Part shown: one piece after another, positions 10,473 to 59,058 of the stretch
How the letters are laid out: every line of letters begins with the position of its first letter
Position numbering within the stretch: the first letter of the stretch is position 1
NCBI GenBank assembly: GCA_050084515.1
Contig: CM114271.1
Span: 12,958,001-13,022,000, forward strand
DNA length: 64,000 bases
Reading direction: 5' to 3'
DNA from: Blasia pusilla
Taxonomy: Eukaryota
Position numbers and translations under genes: made by a program
Notes under the pieces: generated by a model
Told to the model about the DNA's origin: nothing
The model's database searches: none
Seen by the model: the letters and a program-made list of their open reading frames with translations, nothing else

Positions 10473-10479
10473 TGTTTCC

Positions 10480-10512
10480 CTCTCTCTCTCTCCATCTTGG
10501 AGAGAGAGAGAG
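10480..10512. repeat. Perfect 15-bp-stem inverted repeat of TC/GA microsatellite
   Basis: CTCTCTCTCTCTCCA-TCT-TGGAGAGAGAGAGAG, read directly. Confidence 0.9.
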
Positions 10513-11028: not shown

Positions 11029-11640
11029 TTGTTTGCCAAACCTCTTCATATAATCAGCGGCCTTGAGCCCAATATATCTCAGTCCTCCCAAGCTTGTGAG
11101 GAGTATCAGTTCACCTATCAAAGGCGCATACCAAAGCCCACCATCCCCAAGCTGGGTGGGGAATACCGGCATGTTTATGTGAGACGCTCAAAGGCCCCCT
11201 GGAGTTCGGATCTGGGCAGCGAGTTCAATCTGGTCTACAGGAGGAGACCACGGTTCCACATGATCATTTTCGGTGTACGTCCCACAATAGACTTTGTCTC
11301 ATTTAAGATCATGTGCGCAGCTTTGGGCTTTGAATTCCTGGCTACTACTGGGGTTACTCGGATGATGAACGGCAATCAATTTATCTTCAAGACGTCTATC
11401 AAGGGCAGAGGAGGACAATACTTGGCTTGCCACAAAAACCAGGTGTCTCAAGATCTGACATGTGCCTACAACTGGAGGGCTATGGTAGTCGAGGGTGGTT
11501 CCAGCTTGAAGGAAAGGCCCATCTCCACAAAACCGCTGGTGATCTACACACCTAATATCTTTAGTGTTCTCCAAGGGACCAGCGATGAAGAGCCTGCACA
11601 TGAAGAGGTTCCATGTCTTAGCAGCTACACCGACGCCTAA
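11029..11640 (+). CDS. Putative LINE ORF1 (start uncertain)
   Basis: 203-aa ORF directly upstream of ORF2 on the same strand; contains an NIFSVL motif of the kind seen in LINE ORF1s; no named domain recognised. Confidence 0.55.
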   Translation: MFAKPLHIISGLEPNISQSSQACEEYQFTYQRRIPKPTIPKLGGEYRHVYVRRSKAPWSSDLGSEFNLVYRRRPRFHMIIFGVRPTIDFVSFKIMCAALGFEFLATTGVTRMMNGNQFIFKTSIKGRGGQYLACHKNQVSQDLTCAYNWRAMVVEGGSSLKERPISTKPLVIYTPNIFSVLQGTSDEEPAHEEVPCLSSYTDA

Positions 11641-11669: not shown

Positions 11670-14600
11670 AGTGACAAGTCTCCGTTTGGGTACGGAACTT
11701 ATGTGGGTGACCCATGCAATGAAGCAGCTGGAGGTTGCTGAAGTTTTGCTGAAAAATCAAATACATATATGCGGGGGTTAGGAAACTTGGGAAACCAAGT
11801 TAATGGAGATACCCCATGTACCACATTATGCATGGTTTGGAAAGATGTGCAAAGCACCAGGCGGACAACAACAGAGAGGTATGAAGGGTGTCGGGTTCTT
11901 CATCGAGACTTCATGGTGGACAAGTGTGAGATCATCAAAGGCACAGGGCTCAAGTATGAACACAGCATATGGGTCAAAGTCCGAGCTGAGTGCAACTCGC
12001 GGGATATGTATATCGGGTGTATTTACATGCCTACAAACAGTGAATCTGTTGCTGTGATAGAGGCAGCGTTTGATAGTGTGAAAACTGATTTCCTTGGGTT
12101 CCATACAAAGGGGAACATAGTCTTGCTGGGAGACTTCAACAGCTGGGTGGGGCAAGGCACTGATCCCCAAGCGGAGATCGGGATGTTTGGAGATGTGAGA
12201 GTGAATGGCAATGGCACACGGCTGATCACAATGTTGAGGGAACTTCAACTGATGGCACTTAATGATAGGCATAAGGTGGGATCCCCACCTTGGACTAGGG
12301 TCAACTTCAAGGAGAATGAGAGCTCCATTGTGGACTACATAGCTGTGGATGAGGAACTCTACACACGCAGTGGGAAGATCACAGTGGATGCGACAGACAT
12401 TGGAAGATAAGATCATTCATTGGTCTGGACAGAGTTGCAGCAAAGGCTAAAATGCTCGACCAAACCAGTGCAGAGGGTGATCAAGAAATGGAGGATAGAG
12501 GACTTCCAAGATGAGGGCAACAAGAAGGTGTACATTGGCAAGCTGGAAGAAAATCTCTTGGCATTTGACACTTTCAATGAATCTACCGTCAAGACCTTTG
12601 GGTTCACAAGAACAACTGTGGACATGGTCTTTGGCATGGTGGGAGCGTGGAGTGACAGATGCAGGAGATTGTCGGCGGCAGAAATTGATAATATCGGTGA
12701 GCCGTCAAATGGTGGTCCTTGGAACTCAAGGCGACCATTGCCAAACGAAGGAAGCGTATGTCACAAGTGCCAAAGCCAGGGGCGATGCATCCTTGTGGGC
12801 GAGTATGTGGCCCTCACGCAGGAAACCCGTCTTCGTGCGCATGCACAAGAAGAAAATGAACAAGCCACATACTCATCCATCAATGAGAATTTTCGAGAAT
12901 CAGAAAAAGTTCTGGATGGAAGTGCAGAAAGGCCTTGAAGAGAAAAGACGGTGGAATGGTGACCACGGCTAAACGGATCCGACATGTGTTGGAAGGCCAT
13001 TACAAGGAGTTAGGCGGGAAGCCCGCTCGGACATCCCTTGAAGAGTAGAACTTGAGAGGGTGGTGGAGGATTTTGTTAAGATACAACGGGAGAAGGCGAT
13101 GATGATGAGGTTGAGTGGGCAACCCATATAATGATTGGTTCTCCTGGCTGAGGTGGGAGCAGCGATCAAAGAACTTGTGAAGCACAAAGCGGCGGTGGTG
13201 ATGAGCTTGTGAATGAGTGTTGAAGTATGGCGATCTTTGCTATGGCTCGTTCTCTAGTGAGTCTCTTCAACCTGGTCAGCGGGCGGGCGAAGTCATCCCA
13301 CAAAGATGGCCGATGGGAGTCATCGTGAACCTCTTCAAGAAGGGTGAGCGAGAAGACCTGGAAACTACAAGGGTATTACATTCTTTGAGTGTAGTCGGAA
13401 GCTCCTCCTGCCGTATACTCAACAATAGGATCTCTATGTACCTGGAGGAGAATTCTGTCATCAAGGAAGGCCAGGCTGGCTTCCGGCAAGCCGAGGATCG
13501 TGGACCACATCGTCACCTTCAGTCAGATCATCCAGGGTAGGAAAAAGAGGAAAACCCACCTATTGCTTCTTCGTGGACCTCAAGAAGGCATACGACCTTT
13601 GTATGGCGTGACGGGCTTTCTTATAGCCTGTGGAAGGCGGGGCTGAGAGGGAAAATGAGGAGGGTGGTGGAGAAGATGTACCAGAACACAAGGAGTAGAG
13701 TTCTGGTGAATGGCCAAAAGAGTGGGACATTCGACATCAAGCAAGGAGTGGCTCAAGGATGCCCGCTCTCCCCCACCCTCTTCAACATTTTCGTGAATTC
13801 CCTATTGGAAGAAATGGAGGATAGTGGACTAGGCATACGGGTGGGCAAAAACTCTATTGTTGCGCTCATGTTTGCTGATGAATTTGGTGGCCTCGAGGAA
13901 ACAGGAGAGAAACTCCAAGAGATGATCTCCCTGACCAAAATCTGGTGTGACATGTGGGGCATGGAGGCAAATGTACTGAAGTGCCGTGTGATGATTTTCA
14001 ATGGCAAGGAAGAGGACCAAGAGATCCCTCGTGTGGCTACCTACACCTATCTGGGCATAGAATTCTCGGAAGATTGCATGTGGGATGCACACATCAAGAA
14101 GACTACTGAGAAAGGCCACAAGAAGGTGAACGGTCTGTCCAGATTCCTACGGTGCCGGGACATCACATCAGAAGTAAAGCGCTGAGTCATTTTGCATACC
14201 ATTCGTCCCTCGCTGGAATACGGGGCAGCAGTGTGGGATGCCAACACCAAACAAAGGGATAGGCTTGAAGCTGTGCAGCTGAAGGCGTTTCGGGGTATGA
14301 TGTCAACTTCATCACGAACAGCCCGCGTTGGTGTGAGATCAGAACTAGGTGTGGAACCCTTGGAGGATAGACGTGACATCGCCAAGTTGAAATGGCTGAG
14401 GCAGCTGGAGACAATGGACTCCCATCGCTATCCTAAAGAGGTGATGGGGAAAACCTGGACCCAAAGAAGACCCGTAAAGCAGGCCAAATCTTGGACGAAA
14501 AAGGTTCAAGAGATTGTGCAAGCATCCAAGCTCCCAGCAGGGCCTGAACTGTGGGAGCAAGATGAGAAAGCATTCGTGGATACCATAACCAAAGCAGTGG

Positions 14601-15218
14601 GCAAACGCTCACAGCAGAACAACATGGAGGAAGCCAGGAAAATGTCTGGCCTCTCTCTTTTGACGGTATATCCCGAGAGGGCAGAACTGAAGAACTATTT
14701 GCGGGGAACCCCTTGCTTGGGAACCCGGCTCAAGTTCAAGTTCAGGACGGAGGCAATCCCCTTGAACCATAAGAAAAGCAGGATGGGAACACAACTAAAC
14801 TCTTGCGCCTTGTGTGACGATTGGGCCTAAACCTCTAGTCATTACTTGGTCTCCTGCGCAAAATTCACAACACACAGCAAGAGCATATGCTGATATTGCT
14901 AAGCTGGTAGCACCAGAATTGTTCAACACATTCAGTAGCCTTGATTCATTGCCCAAAGCTGCTGCACTGGTAAGTAATGTCTATTGGGGATCCCAATCAG
15001 GTAAAGTAGATTGTGTGGTGAAGAGTTTCTTGGTTGACAGTTGGAAGCTCCGCACAAACACGTTGTTTGGTCAGCACTCACACTATATGAGAGTGTCTCC
15101 CTCCTCTCATATGGTACCTTCTTCACTTGCTTCTCTCTCTACACCCATCCCAGTCTCAAGCACCGTCCAACCAGGGCGCGGGGTCTATGGTCGCAAGGCT
15201 ACGACAGGCACTACTTAA
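11670..15218 (+). pseudogene. LINE ORF2: AP endonuclease, reverse transcriptase, C-terminal CCHC-type finger; frameshifted
   Basis: IGCIYMP, VLLGDFN, NGNG, SIVDY, *DH (APE); NLFKKG, QAGFR, FVDLKKAYD, GVAQGCPLSPTLFNIF, LMFADEF, YTYLG (RT); CALC..HYLVSC. Spread over several frames. Confidence 0.93.
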
Positions 15219-17286: not shown

Positions 17287-19273
17287 ATGACGAGCCTTAC
17301 TGACAACATATTGAGTGAGAGCCACAAGCTGGATAAGAGCAATTCCGGCACTTGGTGATTCAGGATGAACGCCATTCTAATGGCATCTGATCTTTATGAT
17401 ATAGTTGATGGCAGCGAAGAGAAGACTTCCAACATGGATGCTCGAGCCACGAAAGACTTCGAGAAGAGAGATCGAAAGGCTCTTGGAATTCTGATGATGT
17501 CAACGAGAGATTCTCAAATCCCTCATGCAAAGATCTCCAAGCAAGCTTGGAGTACACTTGAAGCAGTTCATACTAGCACAAGCATGACAAGAAAACTAGC
17601 ATTGTAGACACAAATTTACTCAATGAAGATGAGCTCGACCTCGACTATGTATTCTCACCTCAGGATTATGAAAGAGTTAAGAGACGATTTGGCAGAAGTC
17701 AAGGTCTAAATTGATGATGAGACCATGGCGGCCATTATGACGAATAGTGTGGCCCAAGACTCATACAGGGATTTCATAAACTCTCTAGCCGTGAGAGAGA
17801 AGATGCCTACTTTTCCTCAACTATGGACACTCCTACTTGACAAAGAGAGGCGACGCAACGACCTTGCTGCCCAAGAAGGATAAGAGTTGGGACCTAGCGC
17901 TCTATTCAGCCAGAAGAAGGGAACATTCCCGCGTCAATATGAAGAAAAGCGATCACAACAGCGCAACATATCCAGACCAAAGGCCTAAACCTTCCGCACC
18001 ACCGAGAAGAAGTTCAATGGTAAGACCTATAGCACTACTAGCAAGAAGGAGTGCACAATATGTGGTAAGATTGGCCATGATTCCAATCAATGTTGGTATG
18101 GAATGATCGCCACAATCGATCAATGAGACCACAAGAAAAGCAACGAAGCTTACTCGCCGAGAATGGGAGAACTAGTCGAGCACTCACACTAGAAAGTGAA
18201 GATAATGTGCGTGGACTTATCTCAACGTTGGCTACCATAAACCAAGTGGAAAAATGGTTCATTGATAGCGGCGCAAGCAACCACATGATCAAGAATAAAG
18301 GTTGGTTCACATCATACAAACCTTTGATGAATGGACCTGAAGTATCAATGGGAGACGGTTTCATTCTGCTATTGGGGAAGGAGATGTGCAAGTGACATTG
18401 CCGTCGGGTGAAGATTATACAATCAAGGATGTGTGGCATATTCCAACTTTACACACAACCTTATCTCCATTGGCCCCGGAAAGAGAGCAAATGAAGGTTT
18501 TTTTTTATTCCAAGGGATGCGAGTTCTTACAAGATGCCGAAAATTCTGTCACTGCCCAAGGAGTAAGGTATGGACAACTCTATCAACTTCTTAGCAAGCC
18601 GAGCCCTCAACTATTTGCAAGATCTTCAAACCAACTACAAGTTTGGCATGAAAGACTTGGATATTTTAACACAAAGGGCCTCAAGTTGTTAAGCAAAGAC
18701 AACATGGTTGGAGGATTACTTGAATTAAGTGGAGAAATATTCACTTGTGAGACATGCTTACGAGGCAAGCAATCAAGGCAAAAGTTTGAAAAGCATACCT
18801 TCTCAAGGGCTCCTACTCCCCTCCATCTAGTCCACATCGACCTTGGAGGACCAATTCTAACGGCTTCACTATCTAGGGCAAGGTACTACAAGCTATTAGT
18901 TGATGACCATTCAAGATTTATGTGGGTTTATTTCTTGCAACACAAATCCGATGTATTGGGTGTTCTCAAGAAATTTCTTACATTGAAGAGAACTCAATCC
19001 AATATAGTAGACTAAGTGGAATCCTTGCATCTAAACCTTGGTAAGCCACCCTCAAAGGTGAAGATGATATGAACATACAAGGGAGGTGAATTCACAAGGA
19101 AAGCATTTGAGAACTTTTGTAGTGCTTATGGCATCCGTCATCAACTTACTACGGCCTATACCCCACAACAAAATGGTATTGTTGAGAGGAGGAATCGAAC
19201 CGTAGTTGAGATGGCAAGGTGCATGTTGAAAGGGCGAAATCTCCCCAACTATATATTCTTGGGCAGAGGCCAT
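17287..19273 (+). pseudogene. Copia gag-protease-integrase, with stops and frameshifts
   Basis: RMNAILMASDLYDIVDG..DRKALG (gag), CTICGKIGHDSNQC knuckle, WFIDSGASNHM (protease), WHERLG..CETC, VHIDLGGP, VDDHSRFMWVYFL, GGEF, TPQQNGIVERRNRT (integrase). Confidence 0.95.
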
Positions 19274-31761: not shown

Positions 31762-33324
31762 CTAAACAATCCTCGTGAAATCAATTTGGAGATCTTCCTT
31801 TAGGGACTGGTAGATAGCTTGGAACTTATCGTAAGTCTTCTTCTGATACTCCTTGTCCAAACTATGCAGGTCCATATCCCAATCCTTAGCCTTTGCGACA
31901 ATGTAGCGAAAAGACGATGCTTCAGTTCGTGTAGGCCATACTCGTGAAGGAAACAACGGGCAACTTCTTGCCCGATCATCATCAAGCACTTCAGGTGGTT
32001 TTTGGAGATCATTCCCTTCGATGGAATAGTCGAATACGTTATCCACCAAAGCAGATGCCTTGGAGTTGAAGAAGATTTGGTACACCTTCTTACATTCTTG
32101 GTCCAGGCGAGAACCTAGAGTATCTACAATGGTGATCGACTTGGCTACAACCCTTAGTACAAAGTGATGGCCATGCAGGGTGACGATAAACACCTTCTCG
32201 GTTCCATCGTGTTGCACCACTTCATTCCACACAATATCTATGCTCTCATCTAGCATGGCATCATAAGGGAAAACATCATAAATATAAGGGAGGGAGACAT
32301 AATCCACAAAGCTCATATTGGTGTTGATGTAGACACCAAATGACAGTCCACCCTTCTGACTCCACTTTGCTACGGACTCCACGTCTAAGAAGCCGCTTTT
32401 ATCAATGACGTCCTTAAAACCAGACTGATTATCCCACTTCGCATACAAGCAAGCCCCCAACTTCACGATGCCATCGAGAACTCTAGCTGGGAGATATTTT
32501 TCTGTCGGATACTCCAAACACCACCTGGCAGTAAGGAAGGCATTGATACTACATGTTGAACTCGCAACTTCCACTAAATTCTGATCCACGCCGTCGAAGA
32601 TGACATTTGCAATGATCTCTAGTCTTGGATATTTCTTGCATACAGTCCGAGTCAAATGTCGAGGTAAAATTTGGAATAAGACCGAGGCCTTTAGCTTTTC
32701 CTGGATTGCATGGAGAAGACGTTTGCCATTACTGCCACTAGATTGTGGCTTTGGAAAACCAATCTGCCTAGTACTAATAAAATGACTAACACTCATCTCA
32801 TCTAGGAAACTCTCTTTCATTATCAGAAGGTAAGAGAGAAGAGTACCGGCCTCGCAATGATTTTTTTCGTCTCGAGATCTTGGAAGTTTATTAAATTTCG
32901 GAAGGGTTATAATGCTATTTGGATCATTCAAAAGGAGGGAATTAATTCCAATGTCCACCAGGACTGTATTCTTTGGGCAACAGAAGTTTCCAAACTCTCT
33001 AACAGCGTAAAAGAACGGCAGATCTTTCACATACTTCAAGAGATCCTTTGTCCCCTTTTGAACAGAGCAGTCCCGCACAAACCAAAAACATTTGGCCTTT
33101 TTTACGAAATATTCAGACAAATAGCAAGAATTTGCTAGCATCTCAAGCATTTCAAGCGCATCTTCCCTATTCATCATGGTCCAGAACCCATAATCATATT
33201 CTCTCTCTATCATTTCAATTAGTATTCTGATGTAGGGGGGGACAAATACATCCCGCCCATCTCTCGACATGAAGGCATTGTTTCCCCTAAGGCCGAGGGG
33301 ATACGATTTGCTAACCCTGTCCAT
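31762..33324 (-). CDS. 520-aa ORF: FCP1/NIF-like HAD domain + herpes-tegument-like (VTD/C76-type) cysteine protease domain
   Basis: N-part VFVPPY..YGFWT..DC..KDL..NTVLVD..NDPNSIITLPKF, preceded in frame (across one TGA) by PLLILKIDG. C-part SSTC258SINA..VLDGIVKLGACLY..FIVTLHGH386HFVL..IVD401TLG..LQIDF. Confidence 0.7.
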   Translation of the reverse strand: MDRVSKSYPLGLRGNNAFMSRDGRDVFVPPYIRILIEMIEREYDYGFWTMMNREDALEMLEMLANSCYLSEYFVKKAKCFWFVRDCSVQKGTKDLLKYVKDLPFFYAVREFGNFCCPKNTVLVDIGINSLLLNDPNSIITLPKFNKLPRSRDEKNHCEAGTLLSYLLIMKESFLDEMSVSHFISTRQIGFPKPQSSGSNGKRLLHAIQEKLKASVLFQILPRHLTRTVCKKYPRLEIIANVIFDGVDQNLVEVASSTCSINAFLTARWCLEYPTEKYLPARVLDGIVKLGACLYAKWDNQSGFKDVIDKSGFLDVESVAKWSQKGGLSFGVYINTNMSFVDYVSLPYIYDVFPYDAMLDESIDIVWNEVVQHDGTEKVFIVTLHGHHFVLRVVAKSITIVDTLGSRLDQECKKVYQIFFNSKASALVDNVFDYSIEGNDLQKPPEVLDDDRARSCPLFPSRVWPTRTEASSFRYIVAKAKDWDMDLHSLDKEYQKKTYDKFQAIYQSLKEDLQIDFTRIV

Positions 33325-33640
33325 AATTCAGAAAATATTTCCGTCAATTTTGAGGATAAGAAGAGGCCTAAGGGATTTCACCTATCCACCAACCAATGCA
33401 AGATATTAGCCTCTCAAAGAGGGAATTAGAACTATAGTTCCATCAGGAAATATTCATTCACTGAACTATCACAGTGCTAGGTTGGTGTCCAACATTTTGA
33501 CTTGCATCAGGCTCCTTTGGTTCATAGTAGTGTCGGTAATCACCAGGCTACGTGAAACACTTCAGTATTAGGAATAATCCCAAATTTACAAGTGTAAGAT
33601 TGGCTAAAACTGGTTCACAATGGGTAAAAATTCACATTAC

Positions 33641-48777: not shown

Positions 48778-49053
48778 TAAACCCTAAATCCTAGGGGACT
48801 AGTAAGCCTAAAGCCTACAACCTAAATACTAAGCCCTAGCCAAAAAATTCTATAACCCTTTCTTGAAGCCTAGACATGAAACAATAAACCCTAAACCCTA
48901 AAACATAAGCCATAAACCACAAAGCCTAGGCCAAAATCCCTAACCTTGAGCTATAGATCCCTAAGCCAAAAACTCAAGACACTAGGCCAAAAACCCTTAA
49001 CCTTAACCCCTAAGCAAAAAACCCTAAACCCTAGAACCTAATCAATAAACCCT
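48778..49053 (+). repeat. Degenerate plant telomere-like (CCCTAAA)n array, left part
   Basis: Repeated AAACCCTAAACCCTA variants. Confidence 0.9.
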
Positions 49054-51131
49054 TGTCACATCTTTTAGGATAGATCTGTGAGATCTAATAGAGCACGTTC
49101 GCGAGTAGTGGAGGAGAGACTCAAGAGGTTGAGGATGACCTACTAAGGCCCCGGGAAACCTGAGAGAACACGTTTCCTCTTCATTTCGGCTCATTTGGAG
49201 CCATATTGAGGAACTTAGTGTTTTTAGGTAAGTACCATTTTGAGTATATGATCAACTTTCTATTTGTGCTTAGTGGCTGTTGACCTCTTACATCAGGTCA
49301 AGAGCCAAGGAGGTGAGTTGGGAGCATAGGTTACCATGGAGAGAGCTTGGGAGATGGGAGGGGTATACCTCAAGGAGAGAGAGGTTGAGAGCTCATTCTT
49401 TCTTTGTTGAATCTCTAGGCACAAGGCGGAAAACTATGGTCCCTTGCCCTGTGAGTGTAATCCAAGCCTCTCATTAGGAGAGTGGGTTTGGTTTGACATT
49501 GAGAAAGACATGTGAGAGTGCACATATGTGAGAACTATGGTGTTGTGAGAGAGATTGGATCTTATTTTACAAAGAGAGAATAAGTGAGTGAGAAAGCTTC
49601 ATGAGGGAGCTCGCTAGTTGCTTGATGTTTTGTGCAGGTTGGGGGACCGTGTTCCCCACTTCATGGCTCATGGGAGTGCTCACTAGAACAAGAGTAGTGC
49701 GAGTTTACTGTTTTGATTTTTTGTATGGGAGAGTGGCACGCGGAAGCGCTGCCTAATTTTCAATAGGAATTGAGTATCGGGGTGGATTTCTCCATGCCAA
49801 TGCTCTCCAGAACACCATGAAGCTTGCTGATTTGTGTTCTCATAGGTTTTATTTTTCTTGGGAGAAATCAGTGCGGAAGCGTGGGAGAAAGAAACGTTGA
49901 GCTTTACGATAATCCCTGTCAGTTCTTACATGAATTTTTTATTCAAAATATTTTCTAATGCCAACGTAGATCGTGAAGCTGTGCACGCTATGCAACAAAC
50001 AGTGCGCAATTTGGAGTTGTGAGCAAAAAGTTATGGTCAATCTTGCAAAGCTTCCATTGCTAGGCGATTTTTAGGGTTAAATTGCTTAAACCCTAAACCA
50101 GCCGCCGCGCCGGCGGTTGCTGTCACCGTCATAGTCACCGTCAATGGTCCGCCATCAATGGTCAACCGTCACCGTCAATGGTCCATAATCCACCGTCCAC
50201 CGTTGGCCGCCGCCGCGTAGCGCTGCTCAGAGCCGCGTTTGGTTGTTGTCCACCCTTGGTTGCCATTGCCGCCATTACGGAGTGGAGGGTCTTCTACGAC
50301 GACCGTTGATTCTCTTATTTGCACCGCCACCATATACTTTGGTTTGGCCGCCACCGTCATTGCAATTTCGTCATCAACCAATAATAGCAGGTGATCTCGG
50401 CTTATGGTGTTTGATTTTTCATCATGTTGCTATGTTGTGATTGGTAGCCGCTCGACGACGATCGAGTATTGTGCCGTGACGCCCGTAGACGCAATGCACC
50501 TCTGATTGCCATGTCGTGCCGCTTGTGGTCATATCGCATTGTCTCGATCACGAAGCCGCTCCTTCACTAAGGAGCAGAGCGTGTGAATTGCTGATTGAGG
50601 AGGGTATGCCGCCGAGTGCCGCACCCCATTCTTGAGTGCCGTGTTGTTTGTAGTTGTTTCGTGCCGCCAGTGTCGTACCGGACCGTTGAACCTGCACCGC
50701 ACATCGAGGAGGTTTGAGCAACGTCACTACGAGAGGAGTAAGACTTACTGATTGGAGGAGTTGTCTTCACGACCAAGTTAGGGTCAAGATTTGCAGTTGC
50801 CGAGTTTGGGTCGGATATTTGCAGTTGTTAGGTTACCCATTCTGGTCTATTACCCTACACGTGTGAGGGATTTCCAGGTATTGGGAAGTTATTTGGGATA
50901 CTGCGTTTCGTGCTGGTGCTAGGAGCATCGATGATGCATGGGTTTAGAGGACATAGACCTATGTGGGATGTCCACAGTTGAGGATGGTTTGTTGATGAGA
51001 CGATAGATCAATTGATTTGCCGCACCACGCTTCTTGTTGTCGCACAACACACGTCTCAGTGAGAGAATGTAGGTTGAGTGCCGCATGTTTAGTTTGAGTG
51101 ATTGAGGGATTACTTGCAAGATTGAGAGTGA

Positions 51132-52100
51132 TTGTGTGAGAGGGGCACGAGGGCCATCACGGCGTTCTTCCAGGATTTTGAGAGGCGAGGTAGTGAACCT
51201 GAGAGTAGCTCTGGAGGGTTTACCCGGAGTGGTGCGAGGTTTCGAGGGTCTCCACGTGGGAGACCACCTCGATCTCCTTTTGTGTCGTCTTCAGACGAGG
51301 GGCAGCATGTAGAGGAGTGTGTTAGTGATCCACCGTACACATTGAGTGGTCCCACCAGTTGGGCGTACGAGATGGACGATCGGGGTAGAGGACCGCATAG
51401 GTTTTCAAGTGTTGTAGGCACTATAGAGCTACACGACTTCATTGCGGAGTTTAGGAGTTGGTGTGACTCGTATCGGGCTAGAAACTCTAGAGAGTTCAAC
51501 CCAATTACAGCATGGAACGGTATGTTCCAGCATTTTAAGGGGGCGCCCATGGATGATTACCATGAGTTCTCCCACAGATATGCCCAGGAGATTGAGGCAT
51601 GGCAACTCTACTATGACCCACACTATGTGTCATGGACGGGGCTGTTCCCAGATGAGGAGGAGGAGTCAGGAGAGGCTACTTCCTCTTCCACTAGTGATGT
51701 TTTAGGAGGGGTCACTCGCACTCGAGTAGTTGCACCATCTAGTCGGGTTCGTCCCAAGTTCAACCTCGTGGTTGAGTTCTTTGTTGAGTTGAGGGCGAGC
51801 TACCAAGGGGTATGGATGGAGAAGTTGCAAAGCATCCACGACTTTCAGAGGCGCCCACGTGAGAGTTTGAGTGAGACTTACACTCGCTTGCGCCGGTTGA
51901 TCAATGTCACTCAGGTGGTGACAGAAACTCAAGCTATCCAGTCATGGTACGCGATGTTATATCGGACCATGCGGACACGGGTGCGGGAGGGGGTCATGGA
52001 CGTGTGCTTCAGTATGGAGGAGGAGATGGTGTTGCACTAGGAGGTTATCAGTGTCACTATTGTCAGAGGTATGGTCATTCACCCGCCATGTGTTTCAGTT
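51132..52100 (+). pseudogene. Gypsy gag
   Basis: 302-aa ORF with FQRRPRESLSETYTRLRRLI (retrotransposon gag-like), followed by the knuckle CHYCQRYGHSPAMC at ~52052-52093. Confidence 0.8.
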
Positions 52101-52989
52101 TACACCCTGAGTTACGTCCGGACCAAGGGCCACAGAGGGCACCAGAGCAAGTAGTCGGTTCGGGTGGGCCTAGAGATTGTGCACCAGGTGGTCTCGTTGG
52201 GGGACAAAGAGCTGGAGTTGCCCAACAGGGTGGTGAAGCTGCCCGTGGAGGAGGTAGAGTCCCACCACCTAGACGCGTCGAGGGAGATGTCGGGCGTGAG
52301 GTTGGGATGGCTGCTCAGATACAACAGCTACAACAGCTATAGGAGCAGATTGCCGTTATGGCATTGAGGTTACCCGATGTCCGATCTGTGACATCGACAT
52401 CATATAGAGCAGCCAGAGATATTGAGGATTCTGCTTGGATGTGCGGGGTTGCCCAAATGGAGGCCGCCGCAATTATGATGCGTGGAGCAACCGCAGAGTT
52501 GGATCCACAGCGAGGGGAAGCCAAGAAACAGGCTAGGCTTCCTCAATCTTTCACGTTGTCCGAGGAGATGAGGACCCCATTGATGGGTCTTGATCAAAGT
52601 TCCCGAAGAGTTGGTGATGTTATTGGTGTGAAGGCACGGAGGCCAATGGGAGAAACAAGTGCGAAGACTCTTATTTTAAATGCTTTGGAGTAGCATGTGT
52701 TGAGTACGATGTTGGGAGCGGCCACGATGGTGTACCGTGCTCCGCTGTTTTCTGCTTCCAATGTTATGACATTGGGAGGTATGCCTGCCGAGGTGTTTTG
52801 GCTGGCCGCTACACTATGTGAGCATGGAGTTGATGTTCTTGCATCACGTTCAGAAGTGATTGCAGAGGAGGTGATGGACATACCCTTGGAGCACATGCTC
52901 GGGCCATGCACGTCAGATTCATGGCAAGTTGCGATTGATGGCGGAGATGTAGGCTAGACCCATGATAGAGCATGCCATAGCTTCTCTTG

Positions 52990-53400
52990 GTGTTGTGTTG
53001 CTGGATAACCGGGGAGAGGTCTTCTAGTTGGTGAGTCTAGAAGGTAGAGCTTTTAGTTTGCAGTGCGTCTTGTTGGATTCAAGAGCGCAACCCCTGATGT
53101 TGGGGAAAGCGTCATTCAGAGGATTGGGCTTGACGAGAGCCAATATGGAGCGTTGTCCATTCCGGATATAGACATCCTTGGATGGAGCGAGTACCACACA
53201 GTATATCACCCAACAAAAGCTCGTGGTGAGGATTCGCTTGGGACATCCTACACATGAGTCTGTGGTGCGAGCCAAGGCGATAGTGACTAATGAAGAGTCC
53301 TACGACGTCTTGGTTGGTGGAGCAGTGTTATATCCGATGGGGTTTTGCCTGGATTACTGGGAGGAGTCAACGTCCTCTAGACCAGGATGGCATTCAGATG
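52990..53400 (+). pseudogene. Gypsy aspartic protease
   Basis: LLDSRAQPLMLG (degenerate DSG) ..YDVLVGGAVLYPMGF. Confidence 0.75.
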
Positions 53401-53680
53401 ATGAGCACTATAGCTCATTACTCGTTCGATTCACAAGTGTAGTGATCGAGCAACAGCCAAGAGAGATGACGACCTTAGCAACATTTAGCAGTGCCATGAC
53501 TTGGCCTATTGATTTGATTGAGGGACATATCCATGCAGAGGATACTCCCATTCTTGACATGTCTAAGGAGAGGAGTATTATGGTAACCGCATCATTCCCT
53601 GGAGGAGAGGTGCTGCTGTGGGGCTAGAGTTAGGAGCTTCGTTGTTTATCTGATGAGCATGTGCAGACAGTGTGGAACAA

Positions 53681-54530
53681 TACCTACACGTTGAGATTGA
53701 TAATGTTGCGGGGAGCACTTCACTTTACCATATGGCGCACTTACACCTCTATTTTCCCGACTTGTTGTCTCCGTCCGCCATTCAAGGTTACCAGAGTTCC
53801 CTACCGAGGGACATTTCATTGTTGGGGGCGTAGGACTTGGAGCAGGTAGGGCCCATACACGTGGTCATTGCTGGTCGGCCATGTTAGGGCCAATCAAGTG
53901 CTAGACGAGGTAGCAAATTAGCTGACTCTCGGTCTAGGTTGTTTTGGGAGATGATGCGGATCTTGCGAGCATCAGTCTCGTCCTCCAACATACATACTGG
54001 AGAATGTACCAATTTTGAGCGATTCAAGATTCCGTGTAGTGACGAGTGCACATCAGGTGCATGGATGGATCAGCCCGGAAGTTTTGTTGGATGCGGCGCG
54101 TGTGGGTTCACGAGCACATCGTCCGCGTCCTTGGTGGACCATCTTGGTACCACACGAGGTGTTGCGGAGGGCATATGCAAGAGTGGAGTGCCCCTCCGAT
54201 TTGTTGGTGGATTCTATTCTAGATCCAGGTCGTCAATCATAGGTAGTGAGGCACGATGACCCACCGCCGTTGATTGTGGTCAACAGAATTGGCATGCCAC
54301 GGGCAGCCTTTCCCACATTTGTGAGTTTTCCTGCTTCCTTTACATACAAGGAAGCCAAACTTGGCTTGGTTTGGGATGACCAGGTATAGAGATTAGTGGA
54401 GCCCAACGTCGATGAACGAGACCAAGCGATGGGATTTCCCACAGGAGTGACGGCAGAACCGTCACTATTAGAGGCATCATGACATCATGTCTCAAGTAAG
54501 GCGATGGACCTGAATTGCTTCACATGGATT
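53681..54530 (+). pseudogene. DNMT3-like C5 cytosine methyltransferase domain inside pol
   Basis: YLHVEID..A (II), LPRDI (III), VVIAGRPC*GQS..LADSRSRLFWE (IV/V, Cys at 53882-53884), YILENV (VI, ENV at 54000-54008), DAA..GSRAHRPRPWWT (VIII), EPNVDERDQAMGFPTGVT (IX), KAMDL (X). Motif I absent. Confidence 0.9.
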
Positions 54531-54869
54531 TTTAGTTTAGCAATAGCTGAGCAGCATCGTTGGAGGATGTGACATATCACAGTTGTTGAGTTGGTGAGCC
54601 CCATGCCTACCAAGACGGTTGGGGCAGTGGCTCATGGCGAGACTTGAGGAGATCGACACACCAGGGATGATCGAGAGAGACATCCTTGGACTTCTTGGGA
54701 TAATTTGCAGGTACGCCAGGAGATGATAGCCACAACATTGAGCATGGTTCCGAGTACTACACGTGGAGATGAGAGTTCTATTGTCCGAGACGGGGTTGCA
54801 CCATAGCAACTACCGACATCCGCACCGGAGAGTCCTACCGTAGTCACAATAGAGACTTGGGAGCCAGAT

Positions 54870-56280
54870 ATGGGCCCTAAGTTGACAAGAGGAGAGCAGC
54901 ACTAGATACACCAGTTACTTAGGAGTTATAGGAGTTGTTTTGCATTTAGTATGCATGATTTGGGTACGCTGAAGGGTCCATGGATCCGCATTGAGTTGTC
55001 GAGTTACACGATGATCTTCCGACGACCCTAGAGGTAGAGGGATATGGAGAGGGCTCTGATTCAGAGTAGGAGCCGAGACTTGGTTGACATAGGACTAGTG
55101 GAGATGTCACATGGAGAGTATGCATCTGCCACTTTCATGCCCGCCAAGAAGGATGTGCATGGCAACTGGACGGATAGGCGGATGTTGAAGATTACCGACT
55201 TATCAATCAGGAGACAAAGTCCGATAGGTATGCCATGCCCACTCTTGAGGAGATCTTTGATGGTATTGGGCATGCAAAGGTCTTCAGTTTATTAGATCTT
55301 TGAGCCGGATACCATCTACTGCCTATCAGATTGGAGGACAGGCAGAAGACTACATTGGGGACATCGATCCCCACGGGAAGGATTGCTTGTACCAGTGGCG
55401 GTTCTTATTATTTGGGTTAAAGAACGCCCCGGCTGAGTTTCAGAGGGTCATGGATAGGAACTTGGCAGGTCAGATTTTGCTAGGTGTTATATTGATGATA
55501 TCGTAGTCTTAAGCGCCACAGTTGAGGAGCATGAGTGACATCTAAAGGAGGTGTTTCGACGATTGCATTTACATGGGCTGAAGCTACATCCAGGCAAGTG
55601 CAAGTTCTTCTACAACCTGGTTGAGTACCCCAGTCATACGATATACCCAAGGGGTCTTGGTGTGCAGCAGAAGAAGGTAGAGGCTATTTCACGCATTCCG
55701 CGCCCTACAGATGTGAGTCGAGTTCGTGCATTCATTGGATTGGCGAACTTCTATCGACGATACGTCAAGGATTTTATCTCGATTGCAAAGCCGCTGACCT
55801 TGGTGACAAAGGTGGATCAAGAGTGGCACTGGGGGGATGAGCAGGAGAGAGCATTTTAGATGCTCAATGATAGATTGACATCCGCGCCCATATTCATGAG
55901 ACCAATCAGGGGGCGTCCTTTCTAGTTGCATACCAATTGGAGCATGTTGGGGCTTGGAGCCGTACTCACCCAGCATGATAATGATGGTAGAGAGTTCATG
56001 GTGGCTTACGCTAGTTGCTCGAACAACACTGCAAAGGCGAAGTATAGGTCGTATGAGGGTGAGTGCTTGGCTGCAGTGTGGGCTGTCGCACATTTTAGAT
56101 GTTATCTATTCGGCAATCCCTTTACCATCATTATTGATCATCAGTCACTTAAGTGGTTGATGGAGTCCGACAAACTTACAACGAAGCTTGCAAGGTGGGC
56201 TCTTTTGTTGCAAGAGTATGACTTCTAGGTGGTGCATAGACCTGGGACGCTCAACCAGGATGCAGATGGTTTGAGCCATA
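54870..56280 (+). pseudogene. Gypsy reverse transcriptase and RNase H
   Basis: YASAT..KKD..RRM, DRYAMP, FSLLDL*AGYH, FGLKNAPAEFQRVMD, YIDDI, KCKF, VRAFIGLANFYRRYV, GLGAVLTQ, ECLAAVWAVAHFRCYL, IDHQSL, LARWAL, DADGLS. Confidence 0.95.
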
Positions 56281-56659
56281 ACCCATGCCCGAGTCAGCGA
56301 GATATGATAGGAGCTCGTTGGCATGGTGAGAGTGAGGAGGAGTTGGTGTCATGTTGTCATGCGTCAGCCTATTTGGGCTTGTTGGGTATGGAGAGCCAGA
56401 TTTCTGAGACTTCGATGGCGAAATCTGATGGAGAGTCCTTAGATCCACAGCCCGATGAGGACACGATAGTTGGCCGAGACATTCATGATGATAGAGTGGT
56501 CTTGGAGTACCTGCGTACGAGTAGCGTTGCAAACACAGTGGATGCTAGAGAGCAGGATCGGATCCTACAGCGAGCCATACAGTTCTGGTGGGAGGGGACA
56601 CATATGTTGGGAGTGTGGGAGGATGGTAGAGTGCGTGTAGTGCCTCATCCTTTGTAGAG

Positions 56660-57730
56660 AGCACGTTTGGTACGTCATACCCATGAGGAGTTGGGCCATT
56701 TTGGAGTGAAGCAGAGGTACAACTTGCTCTAGATTTCAGTATTGGTGGCGAGGCATGCAGACTGACGTTCAGCAATTTGTTGTTAGATGCATGGTTTGTG
56801 ATCGAGTCCGAGCATCGTTCAATGCTCCGACTCCACGGTTGCATCCACTTCCGATCATGGGTTTAGGTTATAGATGGAGTTTGCATTTTGCAAGACCTTC
56901 TCCTTTGACAGAGCACCATAGTCATTATGTGTTGGTGATGATCGAGCACTTCTCGACGTGGATAGAGTTGGTTTCATTGCCTAAAAAAGCAAGTGAGGGA
57001 GTAGCGTATGCCTTCCTAGATCGAGTTTGAGTCATTACGGCGCACCAGCTGAGGTGTTGACAGATCTAGGTACATAGTTCCGAGGGGAGTTTCAGGCCTT
57101 GTGTGATCAGGCACTGATCGACCACCGCACTACTTCGCGAGATCATCTTGAGGCAGATGGACTAGAGGAGCAGGTTGTGCAGACGCTGAAGAGAGGACTA
57201 CGCAAGTATGGCTTGCAGAGAGGTCACCTAGGAGATTGGGACCTTTAGTTTCCGTGGTTGGCGATTGGATACAGATTCAGCAGGCAAGCATCCTTAGCGT
57301 CTTTCTCACCGTTCTTGCTTTTGTATGGCCCAGAGCCAGATTTACCTGCGGCGATTCGTCGAGATGTTGATGAGGTGTTGAACCTTGATGACCTTGATGT
57401 ATGGATGCAAGCATGTTCTTAGAGGGCTGAATTTTTTCGGAGAGTGATGCCCATGGTGTTTGAGAACTTGGCGATTACACAGCATCAGGATACATTGAGG
57501 TATGCGATTATTCAGGGGGGTGGTTATCGACCTACTATCCAGACGTTCCATCAGAGAGATTATGTCTGCTTGCAGTAGACGGCATCCACGACGTTGGATG
57601 TGACTGCAGGGCGCACCATCTTGAGAGTGCGTGAGGTTTTGCCATCAGGTTTTCTCTTATTGGAGGGATGCGATGGTATGGTTTGGAAGGACCATGTGCG
57701 TAACTTTGCGCCGTGTCACCTTCCGAACAT
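56660..57730 (+). pseudogene. Gypsy integrase
   Basis: HEELGH..CMVC zinc domain, VLVMIEHFSTWIE, YGAPAEVLTD..F, EADGLEEQVVQTLK, SPFLLLYG. Confidence 0.92.
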
Positions 57731-57779
57731 TGACGATATAGTTGATCGGAGCTTAGCACTAGTTCCTACATGCTTGCGA

Positions 57780-57914
57780 TGTATATTGTGCGGTTCCGCC
57801 CATGGTGCAGCCACTATGCTAGTCTATGATGGATGTTTGAGAGGATGCCATATGGCATGCTTGACGCCACCTCTCACTAGGGTTCCTCAGGGACAACGGA
57901 TGTGTCCCAAATGT
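57780..57914 (+). other. PHD finger at the integrase C-terminus
   Basis: CILC..MLVYDGCLRGCHMACLTPPLTRVPQGQRMCPKC: C4HC3 spacing with the third Cys changed to Tyr and the conserved Trp to Arg, both single transitions. Confidence 0.9.
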
Positions 57915-58208
57915 ACATTGGGTAGGTAGTTCTACATTCTGACGTGTGTCTATGACATGGATGACAAGAAAGTGACTAACGATGGGGCCACATGAGTACC
58001 CGGCCTTCTTGCTCTTAGTGTCCGAGAAATGTATGTCATGGTAGATAGGGATACATGGCTATCTGGAATTAGAGGGACCTAACCACCAGCTAAGGGGGCA
58101 ATTGGAGATATTTCGGTACTTCTTGTCTTGTTGTTTGGATCATGCTTGTTTGTGTGTGTATTTGGTGACAGCGATGTGTGTTTTATAGCGATGTGTATGC
58201 GCACGACA

Positions 58209-58710
58209 TCCTAAACCCTAGGCAAAAAACCCTAAACCCTAACCCCTAAGCAATAAACCCTAAATTCTAGGAAAAAAACCTTGAAACCTAACCCCTAAGC
58301 CAAAAACCCTAAAGCCTAAGACAACACCCTTAAACCCTAACTCCTACAAGAAAAACCCTAAATCCTAGGCCAACAACCCTATACCCTAATCCTTAAACAA
58401 AAAATCCTAAATCCTAAGCCAAAAACCCTAAACCCTAACCGCTTAGACAAAAACCCTTGGCCAAAAATCCTTAACCCTAAGCCAAACACCCTAAACCCTA
58501 GAACTTAAGCAATTAACCCTAAACCTTAAACCCTAGGCCAAAAACTCTATACCGTAGCCCCTAGGCCAAAATCCCTAAGCCCTACGCAAAAAGCTATAAA
58601 CCCTAAGCCAAACACCCTTAACCCTAGAACCTTAGCAATAAACCCTAAACCCTACAATGTAAGCCAAAAACCTAAACCCTAAACCCTAGGCCCTAAGCCC
58701 TAAACCCTAA
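58209..58710 (+). repeat. Degenerate plant telomere-like (CCCTAAA)n array, right part
   Basis: Repeated AAACCCTAAACCCTAGGCCAAAA-type units, continuing the array interrupted at 49053. Confidence 0.93.
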
Positions 58711-58841
58711 GGCATAAACATGGTTGACAAAGAGGGTAAAACCTAAGTTGTACTCCCATTACTCTATGTCCTACTATGCTAAAAATCATAGTAGAATAGA
58801 ACTGGGTTTTCTAAAACATCACATTTTTCGAAATCGGTGTT

Positions 58842-59058
58842 GAGGATAATGAGTCATGTATTGCGATCGCGAAGAATCTTGCTCATAATGGTCGCACCAA
58901 ACATTTTGATATTCAACACCACTTCTTGAGGAAATGCGTAGAGAAAGAAGAAGTGGAACTCAAATATTATCCAACTAAGAAAATGATCTTGACAAAACCA
59001 TTAGCTAAAGTAAGGTTTATTGCTTATAGAAATATGGGGCTTGCACGCATGGCATAAT
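58842..59058 (+). pseudogene. Copia B RNase H, C-terminal part
   Basis: EDNESCIAIAKN..HNGRTKHFDIQHHFLR..V..LKY.PT..LTKPL..F; continues the frame broken at 28968. Confidence 0.93.

Follow-up and report, generated by a model that had tools for sequence, protein, structure and literature searches.

The window, the whole stretch of DNA that was analysed, comprises 64,000 nucleotides from Blasia pusilla. Positions 49055-58208 on the + strand very probably represent an old, dead copy of an element with genes of the Ty3/Gypsy type, a DNMT3-like methyltransferase (DNMT) inserted between the protease (PR) and the reverse transcriptase (RT), and a PHD finger downstream of the integrase (INT), belonging to a family with split repeats. 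The features are listed below in positional order, with the evidence for each in brackets.

48866-49054, no strand: left flank, degenerate CCCTAAA-type tandem array, plant telomere-like (repeat search, sequence reading)
49055-49568, + strand: terminal repeat A, copy A1, begins TGTCAC (host read joints, depth)
49569-51131, + strand: untranslated leader, fast-evolving (zero blastn coverage, lower read depth)
51369-52093, + strand: gag, with the CCHC zinc knuckle CHYCQRYGHSPAMC at 52052-52093 (tblastn of P0125 and P0150)
52938-53684, + strand: aspartic protease region, 5 in-frame stops (tblastn of P0125 and P0006)
53657-54731, + strand: relic of a DNMT3-like C5 cytosine methyltransferase (PF00145, homologues at 2.5e-69, alignment)
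53687-53701, + strand: motif II-like HVEID (motif mapping)
53867-53890, + strand: motif IV, IAGRPC*G (motif mapping)
53994-54011, + strand: motif VI, ILENVP (motif mapping)
54105-54137, + strand: motif VIII, GSRAHRPRPWW, with RxR (motif mapping)
54309-54332, + strand: FPTFVSFP (motif mapping)
54498-54515, + strand: motif X-like KAMDLN (motif mapping)
54858-55860, + strand: reverse transcriptase, decayed, FGLKNAP at 55411-55431 (tblastn of P0006)
55926-56228, + strand: RNase H-like domain (RH) of the Ty3/Gypsy RT type (PF17917, E 1.8e-31; PF17919, E 1.7e-18)
56710-57250, + strand: integrase, H2C2 zinc domain and core, decayed (PF17921; tblastn of P0150 and P0085)
57780-57914, + strand: PHD finger, C-terminal end of pol (PF00628, E 1.5e-6, 28.6 bits)
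58092-58098, + strand: purine run AAGGGGG, candidate polypurine tract (adjoins repeat B)
58101-58208, + strand: terminal repeat B, copy B1, ends GCACGACA (host read joints, homology)
58210-58724, no strand: right flank, degenerate CCCTAAA-type array like the left one (repeat search, sequence reading)

The telomere-like flanking array is host sequence and lies outside the element. The reading frames of the element itself are interrupted by at least 27 stops and by several frameshifts. Its leader has no DNA similarity to 80 related metagenome loci (blastn coverage of 0 across 49000-51400), and neither the gag ORF nor the protease read-through gave a Pfam match. The active-site motif of the protease reads LLDSRAQP at 53070-53093, where relatives have DSGAQP. 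A tblastn alignment of the Marchantia protein P0006 runs over 54858-56609 with 51.6% identity and 10 stops; the RT matched PF00078 only weakly, below the cut-off (E 0.0013), and the integrase fell just under the cut-off of 25.5 for PF17921 (E 2.2e-5, 24.9 bits). Both PF00078 and PF00665 were found in relatives. The PHD end of pol is 69% identical to Marchantia P0085 over 276 residues in tblastn, and one zinc ligand of the finger differs from those of relatives. At the position equivalent to AAGGGGG, the related loci L073 and L006 have AGGGGGG; the purine run is presumably the polypurine tract.

The methyltransferase motifs were located by three-frame translation of 53400-54700 and motif mapping. 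They follow one another on the + strand in the order II-like, IV, VI, VIII, FPTFVSFP and X-like; the numbers II, IV, VI, VIII and X are our labels, after the literature on C5-methyltransferases. In motif IV, the catalytic Pro-Cys is kept, while the next codon, for Gln, is now TAG. The relic contains seven stops and one frameshift in total: five stops lie within 53681-54530 (53831, 53885, 54240, 54387 and 54480), two further ones in the conserved tail (54570 and 54645), and the single frameshift at approximately 53968/53970. Motif I, the SAM-binding FxGxG motif, is missing from the window copy and was lost by deletion; about 57 residues of the relatives, including LDLFGGISTGL, are gone between the PR and DNMT alignments. 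The methyltransferase in the window is therefore a relic and not a working member. There is only one copy of this piece within the window.

Comparison of the first read-through piece with PF00145, set beforehand as the test on which the initial annotation would stand or fall, gave a match at E 2.5e-5 (24.3 bits, cut-off 22), and relatives reach 35-45 bits. The second piece alone had no Pfam match at E<=1. Against proteins it had seven matches with E values from 1.4e-52 to 2.5e-69, all seven of which carry PF00145 and which include liverwort proteins at E 2.5e-69. The predicted identity of the relic as a methyltransferase is thus confirmed far beyond chance at the level of sequence. The initial annotation had described motifs II to X in order and in pol orientation, including the catalytic PC, ENV and RxR, in a domain broken by stops and a frameshift, and this description was borne out; its naming of motifs II to X already implied the absence of motif I. 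The domain extends slightly beyond the annotated span of 53681-54530, and homology to P0001 places it at approximately 53657-54731.

When compared with the PDB, the second piece had no matches at E<=10 and the first piece had only non-significant ones (best 0.054); the intact relative P0002 was used in place of the window pieces. P0002 matched 49 PDB sequences at E<=0.01, headed by DNMT3A (6.1e-12), DNMT3B (1.4e-9) and DNMT3C (6.1e-9) and followed by 4onj, 'DNA methyltransferase' (1.2e-8); DRM2 (1.6e-4), HaeIII (3.5e-4) and HhaI (3.8e-3) ranked lower. An AlphaFold model of the methyltransferase of an intact relative had a pLDDT of 90.4. All 31 Foldseek matches listed were DNMT3A, B or C, the best of them with an E value of 2.5e-19 and a TM score of 0.84 on the target. 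Thirty relatives show no or almost no variation at three residues, the catalytic Cys, the Glu of ENV and the Arg of RxR, and the alignment shows an unpermuted motif order. The best 150 of 4,268 methyltransferase matches are all of the transposon type; therefore, the term DNMT3-like rests on the PDB ranking and the fold. Together, these two support the assignment of the domain as probably DNMT3-like, as the initial annotation had proposed. Pfam matches to the accessory domains PWWP and ADD were not found in P0125, P0006 and P0157.

The order of the pol domains apart from the methyltransferase, PR-RT-RH-INT, is that of Ty3/Gypsy elements, and PF17917, PF17919 and PF17921 are present in the window. 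A different picture emerged at the termini. No LTR pair was found in the window: repeat searches with seeds of 14 and 11 and a blastn comparison of the ends with a word size of 7 returned only telomere-like arrays, and a Smith-Waterman comparison of the ends scored 20, whereas shuffled sequences reached up to 28. Inverted repeats amounted to two short, weak pairs. Host DNA reads defined the joints instead, with 288 reads joining 58208 back to 49055 and 367 joining 49568 to 58100/58101. Read depth was 2827-3824 over repeat A and 547-1289 over the leader. In related loci, the A repeats begin with TGTCATG, and 17 of the 18 loci that reach the 3' end stop aligning at 58208-58210. An alternative 3' end at 58170 (GTGACA) was ruled out, since homology and the read joints give 58208. 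The B-A-B arrangement was seen in L073, L056 and L015. The repeat plan of the family is one of split direct repeats, A-internal-B-A-B, and not of ordinary LTRs. The window copy lacks the A2 and B2 expected 3' of B1. The five-base flanks ACCCT and TCCTA differ, so no target-site duplication is claimed. The Gypsy label of the initial annotation therefore holds for the content of pol (CCHC gag, PR, RT, RNase H and the zinc domain of a DDE-type integrase, with the methyltransferase between protease and RT) but not for the repeats, which are split in these three loci and in the host reads. Because A2-B2 and motif I are lost and at least 27 stops and several frameshifts are present, the window copy makes no enzyme now; it is only a fossil, and its value lies in the family that it reveals.

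DNMT-bearing gene models number 16 in Marchantia, and the domain also occurs in proteins of Calypogeia, Riccia and Sphagnum and in 160 metagenome stretches. The gene-model order in these four bryophytes is gag-PR-DNMT-RT-RH-INT-PHD; the Marchantia proteins are gene models and may skip breaks. In P0006, Pfam places the DNMT at 460-529, the RT at 833-919 and RNase H at 974-1098. P0005 is a single uninterrupted metagenome ORF of 943 residues with the order zinc knuckle-PR-DNMT, and in L006 one frame is common to the PR, DNMT and RT ORFs. An intact pol is absent from all 80 related metagenome loci (longest + strand ORF, 508 residues), and the methyltransferase is free of stops in only two of them. 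A whole open pol of the bryophyte type was not seen among the loci and metagenome ORFs examined; the whole metagenome pol ORFs P0157 and P0166 have another gene order. In the host DNA reads, the summed depth was 1285-1956 in the DNMT bins, 1781-2174 in gag, 1795-2510 in PR and 2595-3142 in RT-RH, so that the DNMT depth is 65-100% of that of gag and PR. The methyltransferase is an integral part of the family pol.

The family accounts for 174,048 of 12,434,590 sampled host DNA records (1.4%) at a likeness of at least 80%. At the same threshold, three RNA runs contained 6,824, 7,387 and 7,110 records, on the sense strand, with one orientation prevailing by more than 10:1; such records derive mostly from other copies and are no proof of a coding-competent transcript. 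The family is abundant and transcribed. It has hundreds to thousands of copies, almost all of them decayed. When the window was compared with its 10 closest loci among the 80, dN/dS was 0.18-0.21 at a dS of 1.7-2.05; a ratio of 0.2 is only a rough value because dS is close to saturation. Among the loci, dN/dS drops from 0.86 to 0.5 with rising dS, in an all-pairs calculation that skips stop codons and in which 698 of 3,075 pairs were saturated and gave no ratio. The two stop-free loci as a pair (dN/dS 0.86 at a dS of 0.06) are uninformative. These ratios show purifying selection on the methyltransferase domain.

Several other origins of the domain can be weighed against its place in the family pol. 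A one-off host DNMT3 pseudogene, or a fragment captured by a single copy, would agree with the single, badly broken piece in the window and with a methyltransferase read depth below that of RT and integrase; given the same PR/RT position in Marchantia P0006, the 16 Marchantia gene models together with the Calypogeia, Riccia and Sphagnum proteins and the 160 metagenome stretches, and the DNMT depth relative to gag and PR, such an event is extremely improbable. The initial annotation had staked its claim on other family copies sharing the domain, which they do. Domestication is also very improbable: the bryophyte sequences would be host genes and the window a pseudogene of one, as the annotation of many as ordinary Marchantia gene models and the existence of several proteins with the DNMT domain alone might suggest. 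Against this, the piece in the window is embedded in a gag-PR-...-RT-RH-INT-PHD array with family repeats at its ends, and there are hundreds to thousands of copies, nearly all of them decayed. A bacterial enzyme that is not DNMT3-like, acquired by contamination or recent transfer, is hardly credible. P0039 is labelled 'MAG TPA: DNA cytosine methyltransferase [Candidatus Obscuribacterales bacterium]' and several sequences were named 'site-specific DNA-cytosine methylase' by JGI. However, P0039 clusters with polyprotein-borne sequences in the tree of relatives (from which four of 42 rows, P0129, P0136, P0140 and P0183, with a matched envelope of more than 480 residues, were excluded), bacterial enzymes rank far under DNMT3A-C in sequence and are absent among the fold matches listed, and the domain shares its polyprotein with eukaryotic retroelement domains.

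With the methyltransferase accepted as part of pol, its target has to be considered. It might methylate RNA, act in trans on host DNA, or play a non-catalytic DNA-binding or structural role. According to PMC5890265, a LINE-borne DNMT failed in de novo DNA methylation in yeast, and RNA was suggested there as its substrate; moreover, the sequence separating motifs VIII and IX could not be matched to DNMT3A. These alternatives are nevertheless unlikely as a group, since conservation of the catalytic Cys, ENV and RxR is complete or almost complete in the 30 relatives, the fold matches DNA-bound DNMT3A/B structures, and dN/dS is about 0.2. The conserved residues, the modelled fold and dN/dS fit a working DNA enzyme and are also compatible with action on RNA or in trans.

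In active members, the methyltransferase would be translated within Gag-Pol and, after protease cleavage, would be released or remain fused. Using S-adenosylmethionine, it would methylate cytosines of the new cDNA of the element or of the DNA at the integration site, and the PHD finger would tether the complex responsible for integration to a given state of the histone tails. Catalytic activity, a DNA rather than RNA substrate, the timing and any benefit are presumed in this scheme. The chances that the methyltransferase acts in cis on the cDNA or insertion site appear roughly even. That the family is still active in a host land plant with a functional DNMT3-like enzyme writing 5-methylcytosine is possible but rather unlikely. 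In that case, 5-methylcytosine would be placed on the cDNA of the element and on its fresh insertions, or else in trans on host DNA, and a transposon at about 1% of the genome would, besides the host enzymes, shape part of a land-plant methylome.

The closest published system is KnitGypsy-Dnmt3 of the charophyte alga Klebsormidium nitens, which, in the available text of de Mendoza et al. 2018 (PMC5890265), has a non-rearranged Dnmt3-type domain within a Pol of Gypsy domain content, few copies, and purifying selection on the domain; a legend assigns it the repeat structure of a DIRS element, the order A-coding-B-A-B being spelled out for SymbioDIRS. As judged by this description, the present family shares with it the Dnmt3-type domain in a Pol of Gypsy content, the DIRS-like repeats and purifying selection on the methyltransferase. 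In contrast, the hosts are land plants (Marchantia, Calypogeia, Riccia and Sphagnum) and not an alga, the family makes up approximately 1.4% of the sampled DNA reads and not a few copies, and a PHD finger follows the integrase; the term 'PHD' occurs 0 times in the available text of PMC5890265. No K. nitens protein appears among the named matches listed, which is weak evidence of absence. DIRS retrotransposons, some of which carry methyltransferases, such as SymbioDIRS-Dnmt3, have the same A-internal-B-A-B split direct repeats and use a tyrosine recombinase (PMC5890265, available text). In the present family, by contrast, the integrase is of the DDE type and includes an H2C2 zinc domain; PF00589 for the tyrosine recombinase had no match, and the H2C2 and rve integrase domains are present instead.

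Polyproteins of the green algae Chromochloris zofingiensis (P0169) and Haematococcus lacustris (P0176) have the order RT-RH-DNMT-INT-PHD, as do a Scenedesmus 'pol' (P0226) and the metagenome proteins P0157 and P0166. Among 10 representatives of distant relatives, a single cluster bore the name of an organism, Scenedesmus. The green-algal polyproteins carry a homologous methyltransferase (35-43% identity to P0002) and the same integrase and C-terminal PHD finger, but their methyltransferase lies between RNase H and integrase, whereas that of the window and the bryophytes precedes RT, and the tree places these polyproteins outside the bryophyte clade. If the family proves active, it and these relatives would form one ancient element group of the green lineage that pairs a chromatin writer (DNMT) and a reader (PHD) with DIRS-like split repeats and a DDE integrase. 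Among cellular enzymes, the catalytic domain of animal DNMT3A/3B/3C is the best match in sequence and fold, with motifs I to X, including PC, ENV and RxR, likewise unpermuted in the family. The family differs from it in having only about 20-22% identity, no PWWP or ADD and a transposon polyprotein as its source, and its motifs VIII and IX lie further apart than in DNMT3A, with a dissimilar sequence between them. Plant DRM2 belongs to the same superfamily, and DRM structures are weaker PDB matches to P0002 (1.2e-8 and 1.6e-4). The motifs of DRM are circularly permuted (PMC5890265, available text), unlike those of the family.

Full-text literature searches found no methyltransferase-bearing retrotransposon described for bryophytes or other land plants, although bryophyte DNMT3 copies may be listed in the supplements of PMC5890265 and PMC12344493; the available parts of PMC11982613, PMC11244446 and bioRxiv 10.1101/2021.02.12.428880 contain nothing on such elements in land plants. 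The evidence supports the element as a further case of a Gypsy-borne DNMT3-like methyltransferase, with a range that now includes bryophytes. Because the named land plants hold the family, the known range exceeds the published alga, and the extension to land plants that the initial annotation had raised is upheld. For the window itself, the position of its sequence in the tree and the plant-type telomere-like flanks point to a land plant.

Cytosine methylation is the main weapon of the host against transposons, and a transposon with its own de novo methyltransferase is therefore a paradox. To our knowledge, studies of such transposons are confined to dinoflagellates and one alga. Here, a Gypsy-borne DNMT3-like enzyme has persisted into bryophytes at high copy number, transcribed and alongside a PHD finger. 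Genetically tractable land plants such as Marchantia thus become available for testing which advantage DNA methylation brings to a transposon, whether host methylation is disturbed by it, and how an element with a DDE integrase replicates with DIRS-like repeats. In the window as a whole, there was no Rfam match, and a 521-residue ORF had no usable match in a protein atlas. A Pfam search of ten other ORFs in the window returned LINE and Copia domains only.

Translation of 53400–54700 in three frames revealed the remains of a C5 cytosine methyltransferase on the plus strand. The initial annotation had described this region as a Gypsy element with a DNMT3-like enzyme between protease and RT, and the conserved blocks follow each other in the order that it had claimed:

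53687, plus strand, HVEID
53867, plus strand, IAGRPC*G, with one stop inside
53994, plus strand, ILENVP
54105, plus strand, GSRAHRPRPWW
54309, plus strand, FPTFVSFP
54498, plus strand, KAMDLN

The catalytic PC, ENV, and RxR are retained in IAGRPC*G, ILENVP, and GSRAHRPRPWW. The domain is present at the proposed location, but the proposed span (53681–54530) was slightly too short, and the domain occupies about 53657–54731. The expected interruptions were also located: five stops within the shorter span (53831, 53885, 54240, 54387, and 54480) and one frameshift at about 53968/53970. The conserved tail has two more stops (54570 and 54645). When stops were replaced by X and the frame was read through, the first piece matched PF00145 (E 2.5e-5, 24.3 bits, cut-off 22), the family against which the domain was to be checked. 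The second piece alone had no match in Pfam or the PDB; it had seven protein matches (E 1.4e-52 to 2.5e-69), all of which carry PF00145, with an unnamed Calypogeia fissa (liverwort) protein at the top (64% identity, 98% of the query covered). In the alignment with relatives, motif I (the SAM-binding loop) is absent from the relic, and the relatives are longer by about 57 residues at this site, LDLFGGISTGL among them.

Searches with related proteins (tblastn) placed gag, protease (PR), methyltransferase, RT, RNase H, integrase, and a PHD finger in one collinear array on the plus strand. The features around the methyltransferase are as follows:

51369–52040, plus strand, gag (tblastn with relatives)
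52052–52093, plus strand, CCHC knuckle of gag
52938–53684, plus strand, protease region, active site now DSRA (tblastn)
54858–55860, plus strand, RT (tblastn with relatives)
55926–56228, plus strand, RNase H (PF17917, E 1.8e-31)
56710–57250, plus strand, integrase (PF17921, slightly below the cut-off)
57780–57914, plus strand, PHD finger (PF00628, E 1.5e-6)

This copy does nothing now. Its segments aligned by tblastn contain at least five frame changes and at least 27 in-frame stops (14 against the related protein P0125, 10 against P0006 in RT-RNase H, and 3 against P0085 in integrase-PHD). The CpG observed/expected ratio of 0.70 is a moderate depletion (CpA, 1.43) and is close to that of the rest of the repeat-rich window (0.63). 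No second copy of the element was found in the 64-kb window. Transposon debris is located elsewhere in it, at 62–1819 (minus), 11742–14830 (plus), 18341–19015 (plus), and 58815–59057 (plus), where Pfam identified a LINE encoding endonuclease and RT (PF14529, PF00078) and part of a Copia gag-pre-integrase (PF13976). Just to the right of the element, the tail of a Copia RNase H was recognised by eye. An open frame of 521 aa (31762–33327, minus) has no match in Pfam or the protein atlas, and no ordinary host gene was recognised in the window.

The methyltransferase belongs to pol in this family, and four lines of evidence agree on this point. Other copies do carry the domain, in proteins of Marchantia, Calypogeia, Riccia, and Sphagnum, in a metagenome ORF, and in host reads. 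The Pfam order in Marchantia polymorpha MARPO_0091s0058 (P0006) is DNMT, RT, and RNase H. The 58 long matches include 16 Marchantia gene models, one Calypogeia protein, and one Sphagnum fallax protein, and the near-length matches listed (120 of 174) include Calypogeia, Riccia sorocarpa, Sphagnum troendelagicum, and S. tenellum. A single unbroken metagenome ORF of 943 residues (P0005) runs from a zinc knuckle through the protease to the methyltransferase, and in L006, a related metagenome locus, the PR, DNMT, and RT ORFs share one frame with single stops between them. Host DNA reads at ≥80% likeness to the element gave summed depths of 1781–2174 over gag, 1795–2510 over PR, 1285–1956 over the DNMT bins, 2595–3142 over RT-RNase H, and 2892–3528 over integrase and PHD. 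Therefore, most family members in the host genome carry the DNMT segment. The dip in the first DNMT bins is consistent with the deletion and strong decay of the window copy there.

The description of the domain as DNMT3-like rests on PDB ranking and predicted fold. P0002, an intact relative, matched 49 PDB sequences at E ≤ 0.01, led by DNMT3A (E 6.1e-12), DNMT3B (1.4e-9), and DNMT3C (6.1e-9) and followed by 4onj (1.2e-8; deposited as 'DNA methyltransferase', which we take to be tobacco DRM), DRM2 (1.6e-4), HaeIII (3.5e-4), and HhaI (3.8e-3). An AlphaFold model from 30 relatives (mean pLDDT 90.4, pTM 0.89) was compared with the PDB by Foldseek; all 31 matches listed were DNMT3A, B, or C, with 6f57_D at the top (E 2.5e-19, TM 0.84 normalised on the target). 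The motif order of DRM is permuted, whereas that of the aligned domain is not. The catalytic Cys, the Glu of ENV, and an Arg of RxR are invariant or nearly so in the 30 relatives. A full HMMER scan gave 4,268 representatives at E ≤ 1e-3, of which 269 reach E ≤ 1e-30. The 150 top-ranked ones all belong to this transposon type, and many are part of proteins of 1,000–3,456 residues.

The order PR-DNMT-RT-RH-INT-PHD is shared by the window and the bryophyte proteins, and the DNMT of Mesostigma viride P0173 likewise follows a protease-like stretch. The order RT-RH-DNMT-INT-PHD is found in Chromochloris, Haematococcus, Scenedesmus, and many metagenome ORFs, at 35–43% identity. In a maximum-likelihood tree of the domain (38 rows, after 4 of 42 were dropped for oversized envelopes), the window falls within a 19-row clade (SH-aLRT 100), as a long basal branch by itself; this clade includes every named bryophyte row (8 Marchantia, 3 Calypogeia, and 3 Sphagnum). 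The tree position, the plant-type telomere-like flanks, and the LINE and Copia remains make it very likely that the host is a bryophyte or a close relative, of a species other than those named. Independently of this, the family extends to land plants, because matches are named as Marchantia, Calypogeia, Riccia, and Sphagnum; no tracheophyte is among the named matches listed. The rows of the moss Sphagnum (P0012, P0015, and P0150) join Marchantia without the liverwort Calypogeia (SH-aLRT 97). This grouping departs from host relationships; possible explanations are parallel lineages of old origin or transfer among bryophytes. The NCBI label of P0039 (49% identity) assigns it, as a DNA cytosine methyltransferase, to a metagenome-assembled genome of 'Candidatus Obscuribacterales'. 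It groups in the tree with polyprotein-borne eukaryotic sequences; therefore, the bin probably holds a eukaryotic contig. Two algal-type metagenome polyproteins (P0157 and P0161) have 300–350 more conserved residues C-terminal of the PHD finger, with stretches such as 'VVTAPPL' and 'IVMAPPP'; this extension of P0157 has no Pfam match. In P0169, a G-patch is located between DNMT and integrase.

At ≥80% likeness, 174,048 of 12,434,590 sampled host DNA records (1.4%) match the element. Only 179 of these reach ≥99% and 138,337 are under 90%; therefore, the family is large and diverged, and the window copy is one of its old members. Three stranded RNA runs gave 6,824, 7,387, and 7,110 records on the element (~0.06% each), with one orientation more than 10 times the other, which usually means that the dominant one is the sense strand of the element. 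The DNMT bins have 25–72 RNA records in this orientation. RNA reads ≥99% like the window copy numbered 6, 3, and 1, so this copy is essentially silent and its relatives are transcribed. Two joints occur in RNA reads and in no sampled DNA read: 51065–51119, which skips 53 bases (16, 7, and 9 reads), and 54970–56039, which skips 1068 bases over most of RT (9, 23, and 5 reads). Their ends are AA..CA and GA..GC rather than GT..AG, and they could be expressed deletion derivatives rare in the DNA sample or products of template switching.

Compared with its ten nearest loci, the window has a dN/dS of 0.18–0.21 over the domain, at a dS of 1.7–2.05, which is close to saturation. The median among loci falls from 0.86 (dS 0.02–0.1, n = 49) to 0.52 (dS 0.4–0.7, n = 79), as would be expected if copies decay neutrally after insertion and active lineages are constrained. 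The domain is stop-free in 3 of 81 sequences, a single stop-free match is present in 2 of 80 loci, and the longest plus-strand ORF in any related locus is 508 aa; the sampled copies are nearly all dead.

The relatives have an integral, conserved domain of DNMT3 fold with intact catalytic residues under purifying selection and a PHD finger at the integrase end, and the family is abundant and transcribed in the host. In active members, the enzyme would be made within Gag-Pol and may methylate new cDNA or the insertion site; the PHD finger would read a histone tail and thereby place the integration complex, a role for which the chromodomain of chromoviruses is an analogue. We consider the chances evenly balanced that the predicted enzyme acts in cis, on DNA of the element itself; we regard a role on RNA, in trans, or of a non-catalytic kind as rather unlikely. 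de Mendoza 2018 (PMC5890265) argue likewise for a DIRS-borne Dnmt3, with CG methylated de novo in yeast; in their view, the element might benefit by passing as self DNA, by being protected from deamination, by setting chromatin where it inserts, or by restraining itself. The kind of element is already known from that work, which alone is still cited for 'streptophytes' in the relevant passages of bioRxiv 10.64898/2026.05.21.726589 and PMC12344493. Full-text searches of the literature gave no description of such elements in bryophytes; they may be listed in supplementary files. Public databases already contain the proteins, annotated as hypothetical. Therefore, the family adds to a known kind. 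Four points extend that kind and merit the attention of specialists: the family occurs in land plants, it has a high copy number and is transcribed, it carries a PHD finger, and its methyltransferase domain takes either of two positions in pol among green-lineage elements.

Repeat searches and comparisons of the two ends of the element found no LTR pair in the window. The element is flanked at 48866–49054 and 58210–58724 by degenerate tandem repeats of the plant telomere unit CCCTAAA (periods 7, 14, 21, and 28). Its insertion site was apparently an interstitial telomere-like satellite, and its ends show no recognisable target-site duplication. The 80 related metagenome loci show ~70% DNA identity to the window from 54852 onward, and the alignment stops at 58208–58210 in 17 of the 18 that reach the 3′ end. 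Self-comparison of 16 of the longer loci showed that four (L006, L040, L073, and L056) have their coding region flanked by a direct repeat, A, and that three (L073, L056, and L015) have a short repeat, B, directly before and after the 3′ copy of A. The order in the family is therefore A1-internal-B1-A2-B2, as read base by base in L073. Host DNA has 288 reads that continue from 58208 into 49055, with three intervening letters, and 367 that connect 49568 with 58100/58101; the depth at 49055–49666 is 2–7 times that of the leader; from these joints and depths, A is 49055–49568 and B is 58101–58208. Other copies have B-A-B, and the window copy ends after B1, without A2-B2, a loss that recombination between B1 and B2 may have produced. 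A few RNA reads cross the B-A junction (4, 6, and 10 per run), which fits a terminally redundant transcript. A short purine run lies just 5′ of B in the window and in relatives. de Mendoza et al. (PMC5890265) ascribe the repeat structure of a DIRS element to the Gypsy-Dnmt3 of Klebsormidium nitens, and they spell out the DIRS arrangement as A-coding region-B-A-B. Two loci that match P0002 at 42–48% identity have an inverted duplication of ~970 bp (84–89% identity) bracketing the methyltransferase region (L071, 9493–10467 versus 11925–12897; L057, 7656–8630 versus 10084–11056), which suggests head-to-head copies or a palindromic rearrangement.
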